From an uncultured Candidatus Rokubacteria bacterium (GTDB lineage: Bacteria > Methylomirabilota > Methylomirabilia > Rokubacteriales > CSP1-6), in NCBI GenBank assembly GCA_963758635.1, contig CAVWWD010000004.1, positions 192,001 to 256,000 on the forward strand: a DNA stretch of 64,000 bases. The letters run 5' to 3'. Shown one piece after another: positions 1 through 11,850 of the stretch. Below the pieces are notes generated by a model. It was not told the origin of the DNA. It saw only the letters and a list, made by a program, of their open reading frames with translations, and did not search any database. The position numbers and the translations under genes are program-made. Position 1 is the stretch's first letter, and each line of letters opens with the position of its first letter.

Positions 1-365
1 CTCGGCGACCTGGCTCTCGAAATACCGCATGGGCGCGCCCAACGTAGTCGACGGGCCGGGCACCGTCAACCCGCCGGGCTTCGGGCAGGATCGGCCCGGA
101 CCGGGCACCGGCCCGGGCGTCGGTTCGGGCAGAAGACCGCCCCCTCGATGACGGCCGCTGGCACGCTGGATCGTGAGCCCGCGCTCCGACTGATGGGCGG
201 TGGACTGGCCCCGCGGGCGCTCCAGGTGGCCCGGACCCGGCCGCTCGCGGCCGAGCCGACAACCTCCCGAGAAGCTGGTTTACTCCCCCGGGCTGTCCCC
301 CTATAGTTGAGCCCCGGCGGCCGGTCCGTCTCTTCTCCCGCAAGAGGCCGGCCGCAGGAGACGCA

Positions 366-1769
366 ATGCCGAGCGACTCCGCCGAGCCCCTCCGGGACGT
401 CCGCGCCGTTGTCCTGGTCGTGGATGACGACGTGGGGCTGCGCGAGGCGTGTCGCCTGATCCTCGAGGACGAGTTCGAGGTCCTCGACGTCCCCGACGGA
501 CCGCATGCCCTCGAGGTCCTCCGCTCCACCCAGGTCGATGTCGTGCTGCTGGACATCCGCCTGCCCGGCATGGACGGCCTCGAGGTGCTGGAGCAGGCGA
601 AGGTGATCGACGAGCAGGTCGAGGTCATCCTGGTCACCGCGGTGAAGACGGTGAAGACCGCGGTCACCGCCATGAAGCTCGGGGCCTTCGACTACCTGAC
701 CAAGCCGTTCGAGGAGGAGGAGGTCCTGGCCGTGGTGCGCCGGGCCCTCGAGCGGCGGGCGCTCCAGCGCGAGGTGGTCTTCCTGCGCTCCGAGCTCGCG
801 CGCCGCCAGGACGGCGACGAGATCGTGGGCCAGTCCGCGGAGATGCGGAAGCTGGCCCAGATGATCGCGCAGGTGTCGCGCACGAGCGCCACGGTGCTCA
901 TCGCGGGCGAGAGCGGCACCGGCAAGGAGCTCATCGCCCAGGCCATCCATCGGCAGAGCCCGCGGCGCGACAAGCCGTTCGTGCCCGTCAATCCCGCCGC
1001 CATCGTCGAGTCGCTGATCGAGTCGGAGCTGTTCGGGCACGAGCGCGGCGCGTTCACCGGCGCGTACCAGCGAAAGCTCGGCAAGTTCGAGATGGCCCAG
1101 GGCGGCACCCTCTTCCTGGACGAGATCGCGAGCCTCCGGGCCGAGCCGCAGACGAAGCTCCTGCGCGTCCTCCAGGAGCGGGAGATCGAGCGGGTGGGGG
1201 GGACGCGGCGGATCCCGGTGGACGTGCGCATCATCGCCGCCACCAACGTGGACCTCAAGCGCGCGGTGGCGGCGGGCGGGTTCCGCGAGGACCTCTACTA
1301 CCGGCTGAACGTGGTGCCCATCGCCGTGCCGCCGCTCCGCAGCCGGAGCCAGGACGTCCCGCTGCTCGTCGAGCACTTCATCCGCCGCTACAACCAGCGC
1401 TTCGGCAAGCGCATCACGGGCGTCGCGCCCTCCGCCATGGCCGCCCTCGAGGACTACCGGTGGCCGGGCAACGTGCGCGAGCTGCAGAACGTCGTGGAGC
1501 GGGCGGTGGCGCTGGTCGACGCCCCCCAGATCCAGCTCCAGGACCTCCCGATGGACGTGGTCATGGGGGAGCGGCGGCTGCGGGACGGCGAGGCGCCCGC
1601 GGTGCCGCTCGCCCAGGCCGTCGAGGACTTCGAGCGTCAGATCGTCCAGCGGGTCCTCGAGCGCGTCCGCTGGAGCCAGCAGGACGCGGCGATGATCCTG
1701 GGCCTGCACCGGAACACCCTCCTCCGCAAGATCGCGAAGTGGGGACTGGTCCCACCGCCACGTCGATAG
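366..1769 (+). CDS. Sigma-54-dependent response regulator (NtrC/AtoC family: REC-AAA+-HTH)
   Basis: REC domain (LVVDDD, LLDIRLP, KP), Walker A GESGTGKE, ESELFGHERGAFTGA motif, WPGNVRELQN, C-terminal Fis-type HTH; GGAG RBS upstream. Confidence 0.96.
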   Translation: MPSDSAEPLRDVRAVVLVVDDDVGLREACRLILEDEFEVLDVPDGPHALEVLRSTQVDVVLLDIRLPGMDGLEVLEQAKVIDEQVEVILVTAVKTVKTAVTAMKLGAFDYLTKPFEEEEVLAVVRRALERRALQREVVFLRSELARRQDGDEIVGQSAEMRKLAQMIAQVSRTSATVLIAGESGTGKELIAQAIHRQSPRRDKPFVPVNPAAIVESLIESELFGHERGAFTGAYQRKLGKFEMAQGGTLFLDEIASLRAEPQTKLLRVLQEREIERVGGTRRIPVDVRIIAATNVDLKRAVAAGGFREDLYYRLNVVPIAVPPLRSRSQDVPLLVEHFIRRYNQRFGKRITGVAPSAMAALEDYRWPGNVRELQNVVERAVALVDAPQIQLQDLPMDVVMGERRLRDGEAPAVPLAQAVEDFERQIVQRVLERVRWSQQDAAMILGLHRNTLLRKIAKWGLVPPPRR

Positions 1770-1791
1770 ACCGTCACCGGCGACGGTGCAG

Positions 1792-1890
1792 TGCACCACC
1801 GGCGGTGCATGCCGGCCAAGTGCGCGCCGCGCCTGACGCGGGACGCCTCAGCCGTCCCTCGACGCCGCGCGGTGCAGCGTCCACAGTGCA
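1792..1890 (+). promoter_or_regulatory. Two candidate enhancer (bEBP-binding) sites, TGCA-N10-TGCA
   Basis: TGCACCACCGGCGGTGCA at 1792-1809 and TGCAGCGTCCACAGTGCA at 1873-1890, about 85-180 bp upstream of a sigma-54 promoter; resemble NtrC-type sites. Confidence 0.6.
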
Positions 1891-1972
1891 GACCGCGGAT
1901 CTTGCATGGTCGCGACGGCGCCGATTCAGCTTTTGATGATGCGGAGTTGCACGACACGCAGCGGGCGTTCGC

Positions 1973-1989
1973 CTGGCGTCCGATTTGCT
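1973..1989 (+). promoter_or_regulatory. Sigma-54 (-24/-12) promoter
   Basis: CTGGCGTCCGATTTGCT: GG(1975-76)-N10-GC(1987-88), close to consensus YTGGCACGRNNNTTGCW; next to a sigma-54 activator gene. Confidence 0.8.
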
Positions 1990-2064
1990 TAGCCTTTGCG
2001 TCGCTGTACGGGCCCTCGTGGGGAGGGCCCATGGTGTCACACACCCGACCGAGGAGGACGAACG

Positions 2065-2202
2065 ATGGCGAAGGCCTGGGCGGTGATCATGATCGTGTCC
2101 GCGTTCCTGCTGGTGGCTCCCGTGATCGAGTACGGCGCGGTGGAGTCGAACCACATCTTCACCGCCATCGGCAACGCCGACGGCGGCGCCGGCGGCGACT
2201 AG
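2065..2202 (+). CDS. Small 45-aa putative exported peptide MAKAWAVIMIVSAFLLVAPVIEYGAVESNHIFTAIGNADGGAGGD
   Basis: Strong RBS GAGGAGG at 2051-2057, ATG 2065, GC3-biased codons, signal-like N-terminus; first gene after the sigma-54 promoter. Confidence 0.75.
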   Translation: MAKAWAVIMIVSAFLLVAPVIEYGAVESNHIFTAIGNADGGAGGD

Positions 2203-2220
2203 GAGGCCTTCTCTCCCTCG

Positions 2221-3838
2221 ATGATCCACTGGCGAGGCCTCGGCGTCACCATGCTCCTCCTCGCCAGCACCGCCATGCCCGTGGTCCCGGCTCACGCGCA
2301 GGACAAGGCGGAGCCGGGTCCGCGGGCGGTCGTCAACGGAGCCTACCGGCGTCCGCTCGGCGGCGATCCGGCCACGCTGGACCCTGTCCGGACCAACGAC
2401 ATCTACGGCCGCGCGGTGACGCAGCAGATCTTCGACGGCCTCGTCCAGTTCGATCAGACGCTCACCATCAGCCCGGCCCTGGCCCAGTACTGGCGCGCCT
2501 CGCGCGACGGGCTCACCTGGACCTTCACGCTGCGCAAGGGCGTGAAGTTCCACCACGGGCGGGACGTGAGCGCGGACGATGTCGTGTACTCGTTCACGCG
2601 CATCCTCGATCCGCGGCTCCGGTCGGACGCCGCCGACCTCTTCGGGCACGTCAAGGGAGCGGCGGAATTCCGTGAAGGACGCGCGAAGAGCGTGTCCGGC
2701 CTCGTCGCGCTCGACCGCCACACCGTGCAGGTCACGCTCGAGGAGGCGCAGATCGCCTTCGTGTCGCTCCTCGCCCTGGGCCACGCCCGCATCGTCCCGA
2801 AGGACGTGGTCGAGCGGCTAGGCGACGCCTTCGGCACCCACCCCGTGGGCACCGGGCCCTTCCGGTTCGTCCGGTGGGAGCGCGGGAAGGAGATCGTGCT
2901 CGCCGCCAACCCCGACGCGTTCGACGGCGCGCCGCGCCTGGCCCGCCTCGTGTACCGGATCTTCCCCGGCGAGGCGCACGACGTGATCTGCCAGGAGTTC
3001 GAGCAGGGGCAGCTCGAGGAGAGCCCGGTGCCGCCGGCGTGCCGGAACAAGACCTCGGACCCGCGCTACCAGTACCTGCGCCGCTCGACCTTCACGGTGC
3101 GGTTCTACGGCCTCAACACCCGGATGCGCGGGCTCGACGACGCGCGCGTGCGCCGCGCCATCGCGCACGCCCTGGACCGCGAGCGCACCGTCCAGGAGAT
3201 CTTCCTCGGCCGCCATCAGCCCGCGCGCGGCATCCTGCCCCCGGGCATGCCCGGCTACAACCCGGGGCTCCGGGCGCCCGGCCACAGCGTCGCCGAGGCC
3301 CGCGAGCTCCTCAGGCGGGCGCGGGCATCCGGACGGCCGCGGGATCGGGCCGCTCACCATCTGGTCGGCGGCGCGGGGGGAGCGGATCGACCAGGAGCTG
3401 GGCACGGTGAAGCGGCAGCTCGCCGCCGTCGGCATCGCCGCCGACGTGCGCTACGAGACCGACTGGCCGACGTTCACGAAGGCGCTCGGCGAGCGCAAGT
3501 ACCCGATGTTCGTCTACGCCTGGCACGCCGACGTGCCCGATCCGGACAACTTCCTGTACAAGCTCTTCTACTCGAGGGGCGCGCGCAACCTGACGGGTTA
3601 CGCCAATCCCGTCGTGGACGACCTGCTCCTCCGGGCTCGCGAGGAGCCCGACCTCGGCCGGCGCATCGAGCGGTACCGGCGCGCCGAGCAGATCATCGTC
3701 GACGACGCGCCCATCATTCCCGTGTGGCACTACACGTACGAGCGGCTGTTCCAGTCCTACGTGCGCAACGTGGAGGTGAACGGGCTCGGCGACGCGTACC
3801 TCCCGCTGCGCAAGATGTGGCTCGAGGCCCCGCGGTGA
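2221..3838 (+). CDS. Peptide/nickel-type ABC substrate-binding protein (SBP family 5), one frameshift near 3320
   Basis: Signal peptide (AHA-Q), DPATLDP, IFDGLV, WTFTLRKGVKFH, GTGPF; C-terminal part (W-ADVPDPDNFL, DAPIIPVW) continues in the 3407-3838 frame. Confidence 0.9.
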
Positions 3839-5763
3839 GAGCGCTCGTCCGCCCCCCGTGGCTCCGCTTCGGCTTCAGCTCGCTCCAGCGGAAGCTCCTC
3901 CTCGGCACGCTCTTCGTGCTCGTCCTCATCATGGCCGGCGTCATGCTGGTGGTGGAGTACAGCCAGCGCGAGGCCATCGTGTCCGAGGTCCAGCGGCGCG
4001 GCGAGGTCCTCGCGCGGAGCCTCGCCGCCACCTCGACCACGCCGCTCTTGCTCTACAACTTCACCGCCCTCGAGCAGAACGTGACGCGCATCGCCCGCGA
4101 GGCCGACGTGGTGTACGCCATCGTCCTCGACGGCGACGGCCGGGTGGCCGCGCACAGCCGCCGGCCGGACCTGGTCGGCCGCGGCCTCGAGGGCGCCGTC
4201 GACGCGCGCGCGGGCCGCGCCGGCGCGCTCCTCATCCAGGAAGCCACCAGCCGGGCCGCTGGGCAGACGGTGTACGACATCGCCGTGCCCGTGTTCGTGG
4301 AGCAGCAGCGCTGGGGCACGGTGCGCGTGGGTCTGTCGCGGCGGCGGATGGACGCGGAGATCACGGAGACGCGCCGCGAGCTCGCCATGCTGTCGCTCGT
4401 GACGCTCGCCCTGTGCGGGCTCGGCGCCGCCTTCGTGGCGCGGCGCATCGCGGGCCCCGTGAAGCAGCTCTCGGCCGGCGCCGCCGCGGTGGCGCGCGGC
4501 GAGCTCGACCAGTGGATCCCCCCCGTGGGGTCGGACGAGCTGGCCCAGCTCGCGGCCACGTTCAACCACATGACCGCGCGCCTGCGCCACCAGCGCGCCG
4601 AGCTCGAGGCCGCCCACGCCGAGCTGCGGCAGCGCTTCGAGGAGGTGGCCGAGCTGAACCGCTACACCGACAACATCCTCGGATCGGTGACGAGCGGCAT
4701 CGTCACCCTGGACCTGGACGGGCGCATCGGCACGATGAACCCGGCGGCGGAGATGCTGACCGGCCTCTTCGCGCCGGACGTGAAGGGCCACTACTGCGCG
4801 GAGGTGTTCACGGCGAGCCCCGAGGTCGCCGAGGCCCTCATGGAGACGCTGACCAGCCGTCACGGCCTGCCCAACGTGTCGCTCACGCTGCGGCGGCCCA
4901 ACGGCTCCACGCTGCCCATCGAGATGAGCACGGCGCCGCTGCGCGGCCTCGAGGCCAAGGAGCTGGGTGTGGTCGGCGTGTTCCGCGACGTGAGCGTGCT
5001 GCGGGAGCTCGAGGAGCAGGTGCGGCGCTCCGACCGGCTCGCCGCGCTCGGCACCCTCGCCGCCGGGCTCGCGCACGAGATCAAGAACCCGCTCACCGCG
5101 CTGCGTACGTTCAGCCGGTTCCTGCCGCGCAAGTTCGACGACGAGCGGTTCCGCGAGCGCTACCAGCGGGTCGTCCCCCACGAGCTCGAGCGCATCAACG
5201 CCATCGTGGAGCGGCTGCTGGAGCTGGCGCGTCCGGCGCGGCTGACCTTCCAGCCCGTACACCTACCGGAGCTGCTCGACCGCGTGCTCGACCTGTACGC
5301 CGGCCAGATCGAGACCAGGGGCATCGAGGCCCATCGCGAGTACGCGCGCGACTGCCCGCCCATCCAGGCCGACGCCGAGTACCTGTACCAGGCCATCGTG
5401 AATCTCGTGGGGAACGCGCTGGAGGCCATGGAGGCGGGCGGCCGCCTCACGCTGCGCGTGGGGTGGTTCCACGGCAGCGATCCCTTCGGCCCCGTCCGGG
5501 GCCCGGCGTGGCGCCTCAAGGTGGAGGTGGAGGACACGGGGATCGGGATCGGCGCCGACACCGCCGGAAAGGTATTCGACCCGTTCTTCACCACGAAGGG
5601 CGCGGGGACCGGCCTCGGCCTCGCCCTCACGCACAAGATCGTCGAGGACCACCACGGCCGCATCACCTTCAGCAGCGTGCCGGGGGCGGGGACCACGTTC
5701 CGCATCGTGCTGCCCGTGACGCCCGGAGGGGCGCCGCGGATCAGAAAGGGACAGGATGCCTAG
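3835..5763 (+). CDS. Membrane sensor histidine kinase (periplasmic sensor-HAMP-PAS-HisKA-HATPase)
   Basis: GTG overlaps the SBP stop (GTGA); two TM helices, HAMP (DELAQLAATFNHM), PAS, AHEIKNPL, N/G1/F/G2 boxes (DTGIGI, FDPFFTTK, GTGLGL). Confidence 0.93.
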   Translation: MRALVRPPWLRFGFSSLQRKLLLGTLFVLVLIMAGVMLVVEYSQREAIVSEVQRRGEVLARSLAATSTTPLLLYNFTALEQNVTRIAREADVVYAIVLDGDGRVAAHSRRPDLVGRGLEGAVDARAGRAGALLIQEATSRAAGQTVYDIAVPVFVEQQRWGTVRVGLSRRRMDAEITETRRELAMLSLVTLALCGLGAAFVARRIAGPVKQLSAGAAAVARGELDQWIPPVGSDELAQLAATFNHMTARLRHQRAELEAAHAELRQRFEEVAELNRYTDNILGSVTSGIVTLDLDGRIGTMNPAAEMLTGLFAPDVKGHYCAEVFTASPEVAEALMETLTSRHGLPNVSLTLRRPNGSTLPIEMSTAPLRGLEAKELGVVGVFRDVSVLRELEEQVRRSDRLAALGTLAAGLAHEIKNPLTALRTFSRFLPRKFDDERFRERYQRVVPHELERINAIVERLLELARPARLTFQPVHLPELLDRVLDLYAGQIETRGIEAHREYARDCPPIQADAEYLYQAIVNLVGNALEAMEAGGRLTLRVGWFHGSDPFGPVRGPAWRLKVEVEDTGIGIGADTAGKVFDPFFTTKGAGTGLGLALTHKIVEDHHGRITFSSVPGAGTTFRIVLPVTPGGAPRIRKGQDA

Positions 5764-6853
5764 AGCCGTCTCGGAGGGGCGGGGCCTCGCCCCGCAGGGC
5801 GCGCAGATCGCGCGCGCCGACGTCGTCGCCAAGGTGACGGACGGCGTGTTCCACACGTTCAACAACATCCTGGCCGTGGTGCTCGGCCGCGTGGAGCTGA
5901 TGCTGGGGCAGGTGGACGCGGGGCGTCTCAAGGCCGCGGAGCTGCGCAACGGGCTCCTGTCCGTGCAGAAGGTGACGCAGGACGCCGCCGACCTCCTCGA
6001 GCGCGTGCAGGAGCTCGCGCAGCCGCCCGCCGACGAGCCCGAGCGGACGGTGGACCTCAACACCGCGGTCGGCGAGGCCATCGCTTTCGTGCGACCCCAC
6101 CTCGTCCTGGACCGCGCGCCCGGCGCCGCCCTGCGCCTGGCCTGCCGCGTGACGAGCGCGCCGGTGCTGGTTCGCGCGCGAGCCAGCGCGCTGCGCGAGC
6201 TGCTCGTGACGCTCCTCGTGGACGTGACCGACGCCACGCCGGACGGCGGCGAGATCACCGTGGAGACGGCGACCGCCGAGGGGGGCGCCATCCTCCACGT
6301 GGGCGGAGTCGGCGCCGCGGATGCCGGCCCGCCCGACCTGCTCGCCACGCGGGACCTGGTGGCCCGGTACGGCGGGAGGATCTCGGTGCGGCGGGAAGCC
6401 GATGGCGCCTCCACGGTGAGCCTCACACCGCCCGGCGCGATGACCGTGACGCGGGCCCGCCGCGCCGTCGATGCCGCGGTGCCGCCGGGCCTCGCCGTGC
6501 TCGTGGTCGAGGACGAGCCGGCGCTCCGGAGCCTGCTGCGCGACTTCCTCGAGTCCCAGGGCTGTCGCGTCTCCGTGGCCGCCTCGGGGTCGGACGCGCT
6601 TGCGGAGCTGGCCACGTCCGAGTGGGAGGTCGTGCTCTCGGACCTCCTCCTGCCCGGCGCCAGCGGGCTGGACATCGCCCAGGCGGTCAAGTCGCGGTCA
6701 CCGCGCACCGGCGTCGTGCTCCTCTCCGGGAAGCTCCTTCCCGAGGACCTGTGCGCGGACGGCGAGACGGTGGACGTGGCCCTCGCCAAGCCGGTGGACC
6801 TCGGCAAGCTCGGCAGCGTGATCGCCACCCTGGGGCGCCGATCGCGCGAATGA
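5756..6853 (+). CDS. Atypical hybrid protein: HisKA-like H box, degenerate ATPase domain, C-terminal receiver
   Basis: FHTFNNILAVVLG H-box; no recognisable N/G1/G2 boxes; REC motifs LVVEDE, LSDLLLP, LLSG, LAKP. Confidence 0.8.
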   Translation: MPRAVSEGRGLAPQGAQIARADVVAKVTDGVFHTFNNILAVVLGRVELMLGQVDAGRLKAAELRNGLLSVQKVTQDAADLLERVQELAQPPADEPERTVDLNTAVGEAIAFVRPHLVLDRAPGAALRLACRVTSAPVLVRARASALRELLVTLLVDVTDATPDGGEITVETATAEGGAILHVGGVGAADAGPPDLLATRDLVARYGGRISVRREADGASTVSLTPPGAMTVTRARRAVDAAVPPGLAVLVVEDEPALRSLLRDFLESQGCRVSVAASGSDALAELATSEWEVVLSDLLLPGASGLDIAQAVKSRSPRTGVVLLSGKLLPEDLCADGETVDVALAKPVDLGKLGSVIATLGRRSRE

Positions 6854-6872
6854 CGGCGAGGGCGGCCGTGCT

Positions 6873-8099
6873 ATGCTTCGGGCCGTGCCAGCGCCCGCGG
6901 ACGTGACGATCATCGGCGGAGGCATCGTCGGCCTCGCCACCGCCATCGCGCTCACCGAGCGTCACCCGCGGGCCCGCGTGCAGATCGTGGACAAGGAAGC
7001 GCGCGTCGGCACGCACCAGACCGGCCACAACAGCGGCGTCATCCACTCCGGCATCTACTACAAGCCCGGCTCCTTCAAGGCGCGCCTGTGCGTCGAGGGC
7101 GCCCGGCTCATGACGGAGTTCTGCGACACCCACGGCATCGCCTACGAGCGCTGCGGCAAGGTCATCGTGGCCACGTCCGAGGCCGAGGTGCCGCGTCTCG
7201 AGACCCTGCATCAGCGCGGCACGGCCAACGGCGTGCCCGGTCTCAAGATGATCCCGGGCGAGGCGGTCAAGGACTACGAGCCGCACTGCCGCGCCGTCGG
7301 CGCGCTGCTGTCGCCGGCCACCGGCATCGTGGACTACGTGCAGGTGGCCCAGGCCATGGCCGCCCTCGTGGAGAAGCGCGGCGGCGAGGTCACGACGAGC
7401 GCGGCGGTGACGGCGATCCGCCGGGACGGCGCCGGCCTGGTCCTGGAGACGGCCCGCGGCCCGGTCCACACGCGTCACGTCGTCAACTGCGGCGGGCTGC
7501 ACTCCGACGCGGTGGCGCGCCTGATGGGCATCGAGCCCGAGGTGCGCATCATCCCGTTCCGCGGCGAGTACTACATGCTGCGCCCCGAGCGGCGCTCGCT
7601 GGTGCGCGGGCTCATCTACCCTGTGCCGGACCCCGAGTTTCCGTTCCTCGGCGTGCACTTCACGCGCACGATCCACGGGGACGTGGAGGCCGGCCCCAAC
7701 GCGGTGCTCGCCTTCGCCCGCGAAGGCTACACGATGGGCACGCTGAACGTGGGTGAGACGATCGGCACCTTCACGTACGGCGGGTTCTGGGCGATGGCCC
7801 GCCGCTACTGGCGGATGGGGATGTACGAGTTCTACCGCTCGATGAGCAAGGCCGCGTTCGTCCAGTCGCTCCAGCGGCTCGTGCCCGACCTCCGCGCCGA
7901 GGACATCGTGCCCGGCGGCTCCGGGGTCCGCGCGCAGGCGGTGTCGCCCGACGGCTCGCTCGTGGACGACTTCAAGATCAGCGTCACCGCGGGCGCCGTC
8001 CACGTGCTGAACGCGCCCTCGCCCGGGGCGACCGCGTCGCTCGCCATCGGCCGGCACATCGCCGGCCTCGCCGCCGACACGTTCACGCTCCCCGCCTGA
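6873..8099 (+). CDS. lhgO: L-2-hydroxyglutarate oxidase
   Basis: GGGIVG FAD motif, HQTGHNSGVIHSGIYY, PFRGEYY, IYPVPDP-FPFLGVHFT, NAPSPGATASLAIG. Confidence 0.92.
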   Translation: MLRAVPAPADVTIIGGGIVGLATAIALTERHPRARVQIVDKEARVGTHQTGHNSGVIHSGIYYKPGSFKARLCVEGARLMTEFCDTHGIAYERCGKVIVATSEAEVPRLETLHQRGTANGVPGLKMIPGEAVKDYEPHCRAVGALLSPATGIVDYVQVAQAMAALVEKRGGEVTTSAAVTAIRRDGAGLVLETARGPVHTRHVVNCGGLHSDAVARLMGIEPEVRIIPFRGEYYMLRPERRSLVRGLIYPVPDPEFPFLGVHFTRTIHGDVEAGPNAVLAFAREGYTMGTLNVGETIGTFTYGGFWAMARRYWRMGMYEFYRSMSKAAFVQSLQRLVPDLRAEDIVPGGSGVRAQAVSPDGSLVDDFKISVTAGAVHVLNAPSPGATASLAIGRHIAGLAADTFTLPA

Positions 8100-8102
8100 C
8101 CC

Positions 8103-8498
8103 TCAGGACTGCTTCGCCAGCCGCGCTTCCGCCTGCTGCAGGCGACCCTCGGCCTCGATCATCTGGCGGGCCAGCTGCTTGATGAGGGCCAGCGCGAGCG
8201 ACGGGTTGGCGCGCACGAGGTGCTCCAGCCGGTTCGACGGGATGACCATCAGCGTGACGGGCTCGCCGGCGACGGCGTGGGCGGACCGGGGGGCGTTCGT
8301 GAAGAGCGCGATCTCGCCGAGCAGCTCGCCCTTGCCGAGGACCCGGAGCACGCGCTCCTCCTCGCCGAACCGCCGGCGGATCTCCACGCGGCCTTCGTGC
8401 ACCATGTACGCCTCGCCGTTGGCCGCGTCGCCCTCGCGGAAGATGAAGTCGCCGGGCTTGTACGTCCTGGTCGGCACCTCTCCGATCTGGCGGCTCAT
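8103..8498 (-). CDS. Stand-alone cyclic nucleotide-binding domain protein
   Basis: IFREGD, GRVEI, LGEIAL, PRSAHAVA cNMP-binding signature; no HTH. Confidence 0.88.
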   Translation of the reverse strand: MSRQIGEVPTRTYKPGDFIFREGDAANGEAYMVHEGRVEIRRRFGEEERVLRVLGKGELLGEIALFTNAPRSAHAVAGEPVTLMVIPSNRLEHLVRANPSLALALIKQLARQMIEAEGRLQQAEARLAKQS

Positions 8499-8538
8499 GG
8501 CGTATTCCTCGTGGTATAGAATGACCGCGGTGGTGCCT

Positions 8539-10160
8539 ATGGTACGCCCGTTCTCCCTCCTGGTGGCCCTCGCCGCTGCTGCTGTGCGCGCCCGAGGCTC
8601 ACGCGCAGATCACCGTGCAGGAAGCCATGCTCCGCGCCAAGCCCGCCGTCGTCCTCGTCAACACCGAGGTGGACGCGGAGGTCACGCTCGACTGCGGCGC
8701 CGGCCCCCTGACCGTCAAGCCCCCGGTGTTCCGCGAGACGGGCACCGGCTGGTTCGTCGACCAGGCCGGGTGGGTCGTCACCAACGGCCACGTCGTCCAG
8801 CCCGCGCACACGCCGCCGCGCTGGCTGGTGAACCAGCAGGCGCAGAAGGCGGTGACGACGGCCTGCCTGCCCGCCGCGCTCGCCAAGGCCGGGCTCGCGC
8901 CCGGCGAGCATCCGGACAAGGAAGAGGCGATCAAGCGGAAGCTCCTGGATCAGCTCTTCCCCTCCACGAAGGTGAAGCTGACGCCGACGGTCACCGTGGT
9001 CGTCTCGAGCGGCGTGAAGCTCAAGGCCGAGGTGAGCAAGTACACGCCGCCGGTGAGCCCCGAGCCGGGGATCATGTCCGGCCGCGACCTCGCGCTGCTG
9101 AAGGTGCAGGGCGAGGGCTATCCCGGTCCTCACGGTGGCCGACTCGAAGACGGTCCAGATCGGCGACTCCATCCACATCATCGGCTTTCCCGGCGTCGTG
9201 CTGACCCACGAGCTCCTGAACAAGTCGGCGTCGGTCGAGGCGTCGATCACCCGCGGCTCGGTGTCGGGATTCAAGGAAGACGTGGCCAACCAGCCCATGA
9301 TCCAGACCGACGCGCCCGCCTCGTGGGGGAACTCGGGCGGGCCCGCCGTGAGCTCGAAGGGGGCGGTCCTGGGCGTCCTCACGTTCGTGTCGCTGACACC
9401 GGGGGCCGAGGGGTCGATCGTCCAGGGCTTCAACTTCGTCATCCCCTCGCAGGCCGTCCGCGACTTCTTGAAAGACACGCCGGTGAAGCTGGACGGCAAG
9501 AGCCGGTTCAACGACGTGTGGTTCGGCGCGCTGCGCGCCTACTTCACCGAGGACTGGGCGGAGCGCGGTCAAGCAGTTCCAGGCGACCGACGCGGTGATC
9601 CCGAAGCTGCCCGACGTCAAGCGCCAGCTCGACGAGGCGCAGGAGATGCTGAAGAACCCGCCGCCGCGGCCCTTCCCGTGGTTCTGGGTGGCCATCGGCG
9701 TCACCGTGCTGAGCGCGGGCGGCTACGGCGTGCAGTTCTTCCTGCGCTGGCAGAAGAACCGCTACCGGGTGCAGCCCTCGGAGGTCATCCGGATGCTGGA
9801 GTCGGGCAAGGCGCCGGTGGTCCTCGACACGCGGCGGAGCGAGGTCTACGACGCCCTGCCGTTCCGCATCCCCAACTCGGTTCGCCTCGCCCCCGAGGAG
9901 GTGTCGGGCGGGGTGTCGGGGCTCGAGCTGGACACCGCCGCGCCGCTGGTCGCCTATTGCACGGATCCGAACGAGGTCACGAGCGCGAAGGTGGCGGCCG
10001 GGCTCCGGAAGCTCGGCTTCAAGGACGTGAGGATCCTCAAGGGTGGGCTGGGCGCGTGGACGAACGCCGGCCTGCCGATCGAGAGCCGCTCCGACATCTC
10101 CGCGGTGCGGGCTCGAGCTCTACAAGGCGCTGGCCGGCGGCAACGCGTGGCTACGCTCAG
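8539..10160 (+). CDS. Exported trypsin-like (S1C) serine protease fused via a TM helix to a rhodanese domain; several frameshifts, end approximate
   Basis: Signal peptide; GTGW, VTNGHVV, DLALLKV, QTDAPASWGNSGGP triad motifs; TM WFWVAIGVTVL; rhodanese LDTR, YCTDPNE, LKGGLGAW. Confidence 0.78.
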
Positions 10161-11796
10161 GAGCGCCCGCGCGCCCGGCGCCCCCGTCCGGCGCGCGGGG
10201 ATCCGAGCCGCCCACGAGGCCGGCGCCCGCCGGGTCCATCCAGATGCACTGGGCGTGGCCGAAGAGGTCGTCCCACTCCTCGCCGACCTGCACCTCGTGG
10301 CCACGCTCCGCGAGGTCGCGCGCCAGCTCCTCCGGATAGCGGCCCTCGACGCTCAGCGCCCGCGTCGCCGTGCCCCACGTGCGCCCGTAGAGCCAGCGCG
10401 GGGCCTCGACGGCGGCCTGCGGGCCGAGGCCCCGGTGGAGCACCCGCGTGAGGAGCGCCGCCTGGGTCTGCGGCTGTCCCTCTCCGCCCATCGTGCCGTG
10501 CACGAACCGGGGGCGGCCGCCCTCGAGGTACATGCAGGGGATGAGCGTGTGCATCGTGCGCTTGAGCGGGGCGAGCGCGTTGACGTGCGCGGGGTCGAGC
10601 GAGAAGAAGCTGCCGCGGTTCTGCAGGACCACGCCGGTGTCGCCCGCGAGCACCGCGGACCCGAACGTGTAGTAGAGCGACTGGATCAGCGCCACCGCGT
10701 TGCCGGCGCCATCGGCGGTCACGATGGCGATGGTGTCGCCCCCCGCGCGGCGCCGGGGCCGGCGGGGCGGCCGCGCGCCGCATGGAAATCCGTGCCCCGC
10801 ATCGCGGCGAGGCGCTCGGGGGCGAGCAGCTCCTCCGGGCGGACCCGCATCGCGCGGGGCTCGGTCAGGTAGCGGTCGCGATCCTCGAAGGCGAGCTTCA
10901 CGGCCTCCACGAGCAGGTGGACGTAGTCGGCCTCGGGCAGGGCGGCGAGGTCGAAGCCGGCCACGATGCCCAGCAGCGCGAGCGCCGACATCCCCTGGGT
11001 CGGCGGCGGGAAGCTCACCGCCTCGCCCGCCGCGTAGGGGATGCGCAGCGGGCTCCATCCATTCCGAGTGGTGCTCGAAGAAGTCGGCGAACGCCAGCGG
11101 GCTGCCCGCGCCTGCCGCCGCCGCGGCGAGCCGCCGGCCGAGGTCGCCGCGATAGAAGACGTCGGCGCCGCCGTCCCGCACGGCCTCGAGCGTCCGGGCG
11201 AGGTCGCGCTGCACGAGCGGGCCGCGCGCGAGCGCGTCAGGATGATAGAGCGGCCAGAGGGCCGCGCGCGTCTCCGGGGCGGCGCCGTCCCCGAACAGGT
11301 CCGGCTCGCGCGGGGGCGGCCGCCGCTGACCCGCCGAGGGCGCGAACCCGTCCCGAGCGTGCCCGATGGCGTCGCGCAGGAGCGCGGGCCACGGCAGCCG
11401 CGAGCCCATCTCCTCGACGCTGTAGCGATGCGCGCGCCACCAGCCGTCCACCGCGCCGGGCACCGTCACCGCGGCGAGCCCGCCGCGCGCGGGGATGGCC
11501 CCGGAGACGCCGCGGGCCGCGTACCACCCGATGGTGGCGGACGCGGCGGCCCGGCCGATGCCGCAGAGGGCGCGGAGCCGGCCGGCGGCCGCGTCGTGGA
11601 TGAGCCACACGTTGTCGCCGCCGAGCCCGTTCATGTGCGGATACACGACGGCGACGGTGGCGGCGGCGGCGATGGCGGCATCGACGGCGTTGCCGCCGGC
11701 CCGGAGCGCGGCGACGCCGGCCTCGGTGGCGAGCCGGTGAGGCGTGGCGACCATGCCGCGCGCCGCGCGCGCCTCGGGGAACCGGGTCGCGGTCAT
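10157..11796 (-). CDS. ggt: Gamma-glutamyltransferase family protein (frameshifted)
   Basis: GMVATPH, GGNAVDAAIA, VVYPHMNGLGGD, DTIAIVTAD nucleophile Thr, LQNRG, HTLIP, GTMGGEGQPQ, GGSDPR. Confidence 0.92.
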
Positions 11797-11850
11797 GGTA
11801 GTGTCCACTGTACTCGGAAACCGGCGCTGCGCCCCCGTGAGACCCGAGCC

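Follow-up and report, generated by a model that had tools for sequence, protein, structure and literature searches.

A candidate peptide autoinduction circuit with periplasmic binding protein, sensor kinase and sigma-54 activator in Rokubacteria and other diderm bacteria

Can a bacterium with two membranes regulate itself by a peptide of its own making that is sensed in the periplasm? Peptide autoinducers are textbook signals of Gram-positive bacteria, and the question is raised by a locus of an uncultured Candidatus Rokubacteria bacterium, located at positions 366 to 6,853 of the stretch of 64,000 nucleotides that was analysed (the window; contig CAVWWD010000004.1, positions 192,001 to 256,000, of assembly GCA_963758635.1, a genome of 6.17 Mb in 12 contigs that is 87% complete and is designated G000 below). 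The original prediction for this locus was a peptide autoinduction circuit run by a sigma-54 activator, and all parts which it had named were found in the order claimed. In our judgement the locus probably constitutes a peptide autoinduction (quorum-sensing) loop acting via a kinase that is coupled to a substrate-binding protein (SBP): the predicted parts, their wiring and the conservation of the small open reading frame (ORF) held, whereas covariation of the peptide with the SBP did not.

All genes of the cassette lie on the plus strand. The first (366..1769) encodes an activator of the NtrC family, composed according to Pfam of a receiver domain, a sigma-54 AAA+ domain and a Fis-type helix-turn-helix domain with the recognition helix HRNTL; its scores are below all NCBIfam equivalog cut-offs. 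It is followed by two putative upstream activator sites to which no strand is assigned, TGCAC-N8-GTGCA at 1792..1809 and a second one with one mismatch at 1873..1890, 101 bp ahead of the promoter, by a sigma-54 (-24/-12) promoter on the plus strand (1974..1989; rpoN is present in G000), and by the gene of a 45-aa precursor (2065..2202), which has GAGGAGG 7 nt upstream of its ATG. Next come an orphan family-5 (DppA/OppA-like) periplasmic SBP, assigned to SBP_bac_5 by Pfam and lying in two frames (2221..3838), which has no adjoining permease or ATPase, as had been noted, and a sensor kinase (3835..5763) with the Pfam domain order transmembrane helix (TM)-sCache_3_2-TM-HAMP-PAS-HisKA-HATPase. The start of the kinase gene overlaps the stop codon of the SBP gene (GTGA); kinase and overlap had been recognized before, and the periplasmic sCache domain had gone unnamed. 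The identity of the SBP was likewise correctly predicted, whereas a frameshift was overlooked: in comparison to the intact protein of genome G003, one extra base near position 3320 splits the gene across frames, and since the relatives are intact and 4 of 18 tested genes of the G000 assembly, the SBP among them, are split in this manner, it is likely an assembly error. An apparent 1180-aa ORF suggestive of an SBP-kinase fusion was rejected as a product of this frameshift, the first half of the SBP running on into the kinase.

The 45-aa ORF proved to be a member of a conserved gene family under purifying selection. A search with the SBP yielded 79 loci, and one with the SBP of Desulfobacula 75 more. 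Absence of the small ORF from syntenic loci had been named beforehand as evidence to look for against the circuit; in a first survey, 74 precursor ORFs were found in 61 of the 79 loci (five unrelated rows having been dropped), and the remaining 18 loci comprise 6 that are truncated, 2 outside the family, 4 on a peptide-less long branch and 6 on a branch linked to subtilases. After later additions the family counts 92 ORFs (90 distinct) from 78 loci in Rokubacteria, NC10, Nitrospinota and Desulfobacterota, and several loci carry tandem arrays of two to five copies. A profile built without the window peptide detects it with an E value of 7e-17, as a single copy in G000. No Pfam or NCBIfam family matches the precursor, and matches in the ESM Atlas are limited to unnamed clusters of 45-47 aa (best 0.91).

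The window precursor has a basic N-terminus, a hydrophobic helix, a conserved spacer, an alanine and the tail DGGAGGD, the predicted signal. The ratio of nonsynonymous to synonymous substitutions, calculated over 50 loci, is 0.41 for the helix and 0.25 for both the spacer and the first tail codons, the helix thus being the least constrained part. All 83 distinct precursors compared end in G/V/A/L-x-A (82) or the same with a final serine (1), followed by a tail of 4-9 residues which is mostly [DE]-G-G-x and consists of glycine to 57%; this pattern was chosen after viewing the alignment and is a description rather than a test. A small residue followed by [DE]-[GS]-[GSDA] is present near the end in 71 of 90 precursors, and 18 of the 19 exceptions are from Desulfobacterota. 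In these, the precursors have 29-33 residues and consist of a signal peptide, a textbook site P-V-L-A and, directly thereafter, a tail of 5-7 residues; the 20-residue spacer is missing, leaving the alanine and the Gly-rich tail as the only universal features. The mass of 46 out of 56 tails does not exceed 600 Da, which is about the limit for passage through porins. Two other readings of the small protein were rejected, that of a lipoprotein, cysteine being merely optional at the first tail position, and that of an Flp pilin, the helix being N-terminal. At one locus (L068:5012-5873) four tandem peptide genes are present in a long-read assembly, two of them with frameshifts in the tail.

The SBP and the sensor kinase form a conserved pair. 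Among 89 family loci, in which one contig is counted twice and some loci share a genome, a permease gene is present in 1, compared to 40 of 61 other SBP5 loci. Of the 76 family loci with sufficient flanking sequence, 73 have the sensor kinase after the SBP; the sensor occurs in none of the 61 other SBP5 loci. The pairing is also kept where the sensor output is an HD domain, the two being linked across three output types. The model of the intact G003 SBP (pLDDT 94) has the Dpp/Opp fold and matches peptide-binding Dpp/Opp proteins as well as glutathione, opine and nickel binders. The equivalents of DppA W405 and D408 (Trp-x-x-Asp), which we take to hold the amino terminus of the peptide, are conserved in 65 of 68 (Trp) and 66 of 68 (Asp) family SBPs, and the Asp is missing solely in two peptide-less proteins of the Aminicenantes type. 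Near the position of DppA Arg355, presumably the residue for the carboxyl terminus, 63 of the 68 SBPs have Lys or Arg, but about two residues off.

The sensor domain is weakly similar to DcuS (E 0.005), contains a conserved patch L-x-Y-N-[FY]-x-A-L-E, has 523 relatives among cluster representatives at E 1e-10 and is borne by kinases, by a stand-alone hybrid kinase (genus g30) and by HAMP-GAF-HD proteins. The g30 protein, a second hybrid kinase encoded at L108-L111 (e.g. L110:8518-10905) with neither an SBP nor a peptide gene nearby, may read the same signal. G000 also encodes, at C10:56549-57166, a weak paralogue with 28% identity to the sensor region, which is widespread in the phylum and shows no linkage to the peptide.

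In 251 genomes of the phylum (a set that includes the unpublished genomes G009, G023, G084 and G115) the peptide profile matches 127 and the sensor profile 138 (E 1e-25 or better); 120 genomes have both, 18 the sensor only, 7 the peptide only and 106 neither, giving 25 discordant genomes. As the genomes are fragmentary and related, these are descriptive counts to which no significance test was applied. About half of the genomes sampled from this soil phylum carry the gene set, as do some sulfate-reducing bacteria. In the phylum of the Desulfobacula genome the sensor was found in 13 of 401 sampled genomes.

The predicted elements of the promoter region were confirmed as well. The TGCA-N10-TGCA pair with the -24/-12 element is not a chance arrangement: the 6.17 Mb of G000 contain 15 such sites, and boxes are located upstream of 1 of 28 strict -24/-12 matches and 1 of 81 matches of a promoter matrix, the latter being the promoter at 1974. 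Of 70 loci, 64 have a -24/-12 element 76-120 nt before the peptide gene; a TGCAC-N7/8-GTGCA box with one mismatch at most accompanies 49 of these 64 promoters. The activator orthologues keep HRN[ST]L, whereas the Aminicenantes-type regulators have a different helix and no box. The feedback arrangement of activator box, -24/-12 promoter and peptide is conserved as far as Desulfobacterota; in Desulfobacula the activator gene is located downstream on the opposite strand, and boxes, promoter and peptide still precede the SBP.

In some genomes the box is also found at other operons. Three g30 genomes contain 30, 24 and 32 perfect boxes versus 14, 15 and 10 of a control, often with operon-like spacing. 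In genome G034 a sigma-54 promoter lies no more than 260 bp from 22 of the 27 perfect boxes outside the operon, compared to 16 of 1432 random positions, and in G040 this holds for 10 of 29 boxes compared to 12 of 1501, with a sigma-54 score that was widened to a TCGC variant after this variant had been seen. Candidate targets in one Rokubacteria genus encode a subtilase, M10 and M4 proteases, three patatins, an MbnB/TglH-type enzyme for ribosomally synthesized and post-translationally modified peptides (RiPPs), PAN and PEP-CTERM proteins, further regulators and a contractile injection system that has an activator of its own (63 proteins scanned downstream, many without a family); several targets are common to G034 and G040. 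The injection system (L211:1-6900 of G034; sheath, gp19 tube, baseplate, Pvc16) has its sigma-54 activator as first gene and is preceded by a box doublet and a variant promoter, and the RiPP enzyme (L216:1351-6250 of G034) lies behind boxes between a 150-aa gene and a trypsin-nuclease gene. The promoter variant, TCGC for TTGC at -12, recurs at L206, L209, L211, L215, L216, L219 and L222 and is nearly identical across unrelated operons. A three-gene operon without Pfam match is under box control in two genomes (L208:3841-6340 and L219:2077-4579), and a related N-terminus is joined to a patatin at L215:4303-5907. A conserved box of G000 (C7:477349) was rejected as a regulatory site, since it sits inside a protease gene.

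The most informative loci on the nature of the signal are those which lack the small ORF. In genomes G508 (L246) and G318 (L250) and at L308 and L081, the neighbour of the SBP-sensor pair is a gene for a secreted subtilase of family S8 that contains [DE]GG-x-[ASG] pentapeptides in one or two tandem blocks; a subtilase with such repeats also belongs to the cassette of L486/L095. Among the 120 of 171 matches listed in a protein search, which showed a sharp drop after 68 close relatives, three or more repeats are present in 67 of these 68 and in none of the 52 other subtilases. The units are DGGAA (553 copies), DGGSA, DGGAG, DGGSG and EGGAG, with up to 39 per protein. The catalytic Asp, His and Ser and the oxyanion Asn are invariant in 44 aligned proteins; one block takes the place of a short surface loop (161-164 in subtilisin BPN'), and the other is often inserted ahead of the catalytic domain, after the N-terminal part. 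In 26 of the 68 this latter block follows a stretch like Q-A-V-x-A-T-A, which resembles the Q-A-I-G-T-A of 59 of the 90 small precursors. As cassettes without the small ORF carry the motif of its tail in the subtilase repeats, the C-terminal tail is likely the signal. [DE]GG is invariably preceded by Ala, Gly or Ser, whereas Asp or Glu is allowed one position earlier, and a cut just before the acidic residue therefore appears favoured.

In a quick tree of the SBPs (23 rows thinned out, the out-of-frame ones of L246 and L250 disregarded), L308, L081, Entotheonella and L095 were grouped with a support of 95 inside the family (support 99). Repeat subtilases had been predicted beforehand for this branch and were found in G255 (12 repeat matches, control 0), in G678 (11, control 0) and in G253, where one of several repeat runs is located upstream of a sensor kinase; two Entotheonella genomes with SBP and sensor and without the small ORF carry a repeat subtilase elsewhere in the genome. 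In the 401-genome sample the subtilase family occurs in G508 and G318 only, both of which are sensor-positive and had been search seeds. The repeat subtilases P0198 and P0214, named as from Desulfonema magnum, and P0217, named as from Desulfococcus multivorans, are from cultured species. G253 also contains tandem arrays of subtilase genes (L486, L487), most with SEGGD repeats and one with Gly-Asp-rich C-terminal repeats. At L250:9362-9862 and L308:3185-3679, in two loci with an HD domain at the end of the sensor, a ribbon-helix-helix-PilZ regulator is encoded just upstream of the repeat subtilase, and the same loop is possibly closed there via cyclic di-GMP rather than sigma-54.

In the circuit that we propose, the precursor would be exported and cut after the small residue to give a Gly-rich peptide of 4-9 residues, here DGGAGGD. 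The free tail would bind to the periplasmic SBP, and the liganded SBP would dock on the sCache domain of the kinase, which would then switch on the activator by phosphorylation; this in turn would drive the promoter at 1974 and increase the formation of peptide and receptor. In some lineages the activator would additionally drive a regulon of secreted and competitive, public-goods functions. We infer the export, the cut site and its protease, the binding, the docking, the sign of kinase control, the pairing of activator and box and the passage of the peptide between cells.

Several observations weigh against this circuit. A check for peptide-SBP covariation, which had been proposed with the original prediction, turned out negative: in a partial Mantel test with crude distances for 25 loci, the peptide distance, corrected for activator and kinase, does not track that of the SBP (partial r -0.27, p 0.97). 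Tests of the same kind revealed no covariation of SBP and sensor either, and a swapping of the outer cassette parts as blocks was not supported. The absence of peptide-SBP covariation points either to a shared core of low specificity or to a wrong pairing, and since the tails vary in length and last residue, specificity looks low. In 18 Desulfobacterota tails the acidic motif is lacking, and the cut predicted for Rokubacteria lies about 20 residues past the helix, a long distance for signal peptidase I. Peptide and box are both absent from four Aminicenantes-type cassettes; long-branch cassettes of SBP, kinase and activator without peptide are found at L096, L097, L100 and L105, and in these the SBP pocket, the sensor patch and the activator helix are altered. 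A regulon beyond the operon is not visible in G000, G003 and G022, whose output may run through the co-transcribed kinases and receivers. G000 has 64 SBP5 matches and a second, NtrC-like activator with an RNTL helix, a potential competitor for the boxes, and NtrC-like boxes of 17 bp occur in several loci. G675, G676 and G677 yielded no repeat subtilase, nor was the subtilase family found in the 251 phylum genomes with 5 candidates scored per genome. The repeat by itself is not diagnostic: a DNA scan for four motif repeats gave at least 121 stretches, and the 80 of these that were inspected were mostly unrelated low-complexity DNA and included 1 cassette contig. A scan of genome contigs for subtilases gave mostly generic ones, with an SBP or sensor at 0 of 80 loci.

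How far do these points favour other explanations? The same parts and the same signal could serve a cell-autonomous function, the peptide remaining in the periplasm of its producer and reporting export, proteolysis or retention by the outer membrane (confinement), or setting a bistable switch. Receptor and signal source share one compartment, repeats beside the prodomain and in a surface loop of the subtilases would report maturation of the protease, and both the lack of covariation and the lack of a regulon in G000 agree with such a role; however, most tails are small enough to leave the cell, the copy number is amplified to up to 5 genes or 39 motifs, and the G034 and G040 targets are extracellular and competitive, which makes confinement to the producer unlikely in our opinion, if worth serious attention. 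Clearly less probable is direct binding of the peptide to the sCache domain, the SBP then setting the threshold as a sink, a buffer or an inhibitor. The DcuS fold, to which the sensor is weakly related, binds small acids, the peptide distance correlates better with the sensor (0.51) than with the SBP (0.29; sensor partial r 0.18, p 0.11), and the second g30 kinase bears the same sensor alone; the linkage of SBP and sensor across three output types and the retained amine-binding Asp of the SBP speak against this. That the tail is the ligand is common to the autoinduction loop and to these two alternatives, and taken jointly we regard this claim as highly probable.

The tail would have no such role if the small protein were an uncut membrane modulator of the kinase, for which MgrB and SafA are models, and the SBP had an unrelated metabolite or nutrient peptides as ligand, possibly with NtrC in control. 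Its size and single helix, the conserved spacer in Rokubacteria, the glutathione, opine and nickel binders among family-5 SBPs and the NtrC-like activator of G000 would fit; we nevertheless consider this improbable, marginally more so than direct sensor binding, as the helix is the part under least constraint, the Desulfobacterota forms are reduced to signal peptide plus tail, and subtilases encoded next to the same SBP-sensor pair contain the tail motif with no helix. Most improbable appears a function of the SBP as a PrgZ-like factor which passes the peptide to a general Opp/Dpp permease and on to a cytoplasmic RRNPPA-like receptor while the kinase responds to a different cue. PrgZ itself is a pheromone receptor of family 5, the many SBP5 systems of G000 make import via Opp possible, and the precursor layout is like that of Phr (PMC11343458). 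The scarcity of permeases in the family loci, the translational overlap of SBP and kinase, the restriction of the sensor to this SBP family in the comparison with other SBP5 loci and the absence of a cytoplasmic receptor gene from the loci argue against it; the neighbours of the peptide gene are activator, SBP and kinase, no RRNPPA receptor gene being adjacent, and no genome-wide search for such a receptor was made.

To which known systems is the proposed autoinduction loop related? In Agr and ComCDE a peptide gene is part of a positively autoregulated two-component operon, as appears to be the case here. Unlike these systems, the loci contain neither AgrB nor an ABC exporter, the kinase is of the HisKA type with an sCache domain and an SBP, and the activator depends on sigma-54 instead of being a LytTR protein. 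LuxP-LuxQ-LuxO conducts an autoinducer signal in a diderm from a periplasmic binding protein via a kinase to a sigma-54 activator, the same route as proposed here, with the metabolite autoinducer-2 as signal. The present signal would instead be a ribosomal peptide, the binding protein is of a different class, and the activator scores far below the LuxO cut-off (343 bits versus 800 for NF041946). LuxP has been described as a signalling periplasmic binding protein and AioX-AioS-AioR as an arsenite-sensing system consisting of a transporter-less periplasmic binding protein, a kinase and a response regulator acting at an RpoN promoter (PMC5908839). The cassette shares with AioXSR the co-encoded binding protein and kinase without transporter and the sigma-54 activator with a box, its presumed binding site, upstream of an RpoN promoter; AioX, however, recognizes an external metalloid and is of the oxyanion type, whereas the present SBP belongs to SBP_bac_5 and the gene of its likely ligand is part of the regulated operon. 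RRNPPA systems such as Phr-Rap of Bacillota have short Sec-exported precursors that can contain 1-4 pheromone copies; signal peptidase and further proteases release the C-terminal pheromone of 5-10 residues, which a family-5 protein binds and Opp imports to a cytoplasmic receptor (PMC11343458). In comparison, the sequence pattern of a signal-peptide precursor with a short C-terminal mature peptide is alike, whereas the pairing of the SBP with a membrane sensor, the diderm hosts and the up to 39 repeats inside a protease are unlike Phr-Rap. The cassette is Phr-like in production, LuxPQ/AioXSR-like in sensing and a member of none of these systems.

No description of the cassette or of the repeat subtilases was found in the literature searched, coverage of which excluded most subscription papers and supplements. 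There is, in our estimation, an even chance that the cassettes represent an undescribed family of peptide quorum sensing in diderms of at least four phyla, in which unmodified, porin-sized [DE]-G-G-x-x peptides derived from a small gene or from repeats cut out of a secreted subtilase that serves as its own pheromone source would be sensed by an orphan DppA-like protein and a dedicated sCache sensor, wired either to sigma-54 or to a PilZ regulator via an HD domain, with secreted enzymes, RiPPs and contractile injection systems as sigma-54 outputs. The shared peptide core may then be a cross-species signal. If true, a widespread diderm peptide system with a periplasmic receptor would change the division between Gram-positive and diderm signalling, Rokubacteria, an abundant uncultured soil group, would have a first candidate communication system and could be probed or perhaps brought into culture with a defined synthetic peptide of 5-7 residues, and a protease with its pheromone built in as repeats would represent a novel mode of signal production. 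The hypothesis is cheap to test, as the peptides are short and unmodified, the receptor is soluble and confidently modelled, and repeat subtilases occur in cultured species.

The remaining features of the window are accessory. A pseudokinase-receiver gene (5756..6853, plus strand) ends the locus; its product keeps the H-box His and an intact receiver with its Asp, whereas the N, G1 and G2 boxes for ATP binding, judged against the closest homologue (L075, 43%), are lost. It was predicted correctly, but is variable among relatives and hence not a constant member of the cassette. A sigma-70-like promoter before the activator gene (279..307, plus strand) is a consensus match only, with 9 of 12 positions and a 17-nt spacer (1 match versus 0.1 in shuffled sequences), and a weak site resembling the consensus of the integration host factor, with 2 mismatches and possibly a chance match, is located between boxes and promoter on the minus strand (1926..1938). 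Rfam gave no match within positions 1-9000 of the window. Parts of the window are contained in 20 sequencing runs, 6 of them registered as RNA, which does not amount to evidence of expression. Beyond the locus, a trypsin-like protease followed by a rhodanese domain is split over three frames (8615-10060), and a gamma-glutamyltransferase-like gene (about 10120-11808) shows more frameshifts. In other genomes, a second sigma-54 promoter is present after the kinase gene (L090:7193, L092:7635, L093:8228, L247, L254-L256), in several loci ahead of a receiver gene and at times with a box of its own. Small Cys-x-x-Cys lipoprotein-like ORFs were observed upstream of the activator gene at L255:11702-12544, where three are in tandem, and at L256:1684-1842, one of these ORFs having a sigma-54-like promoter.

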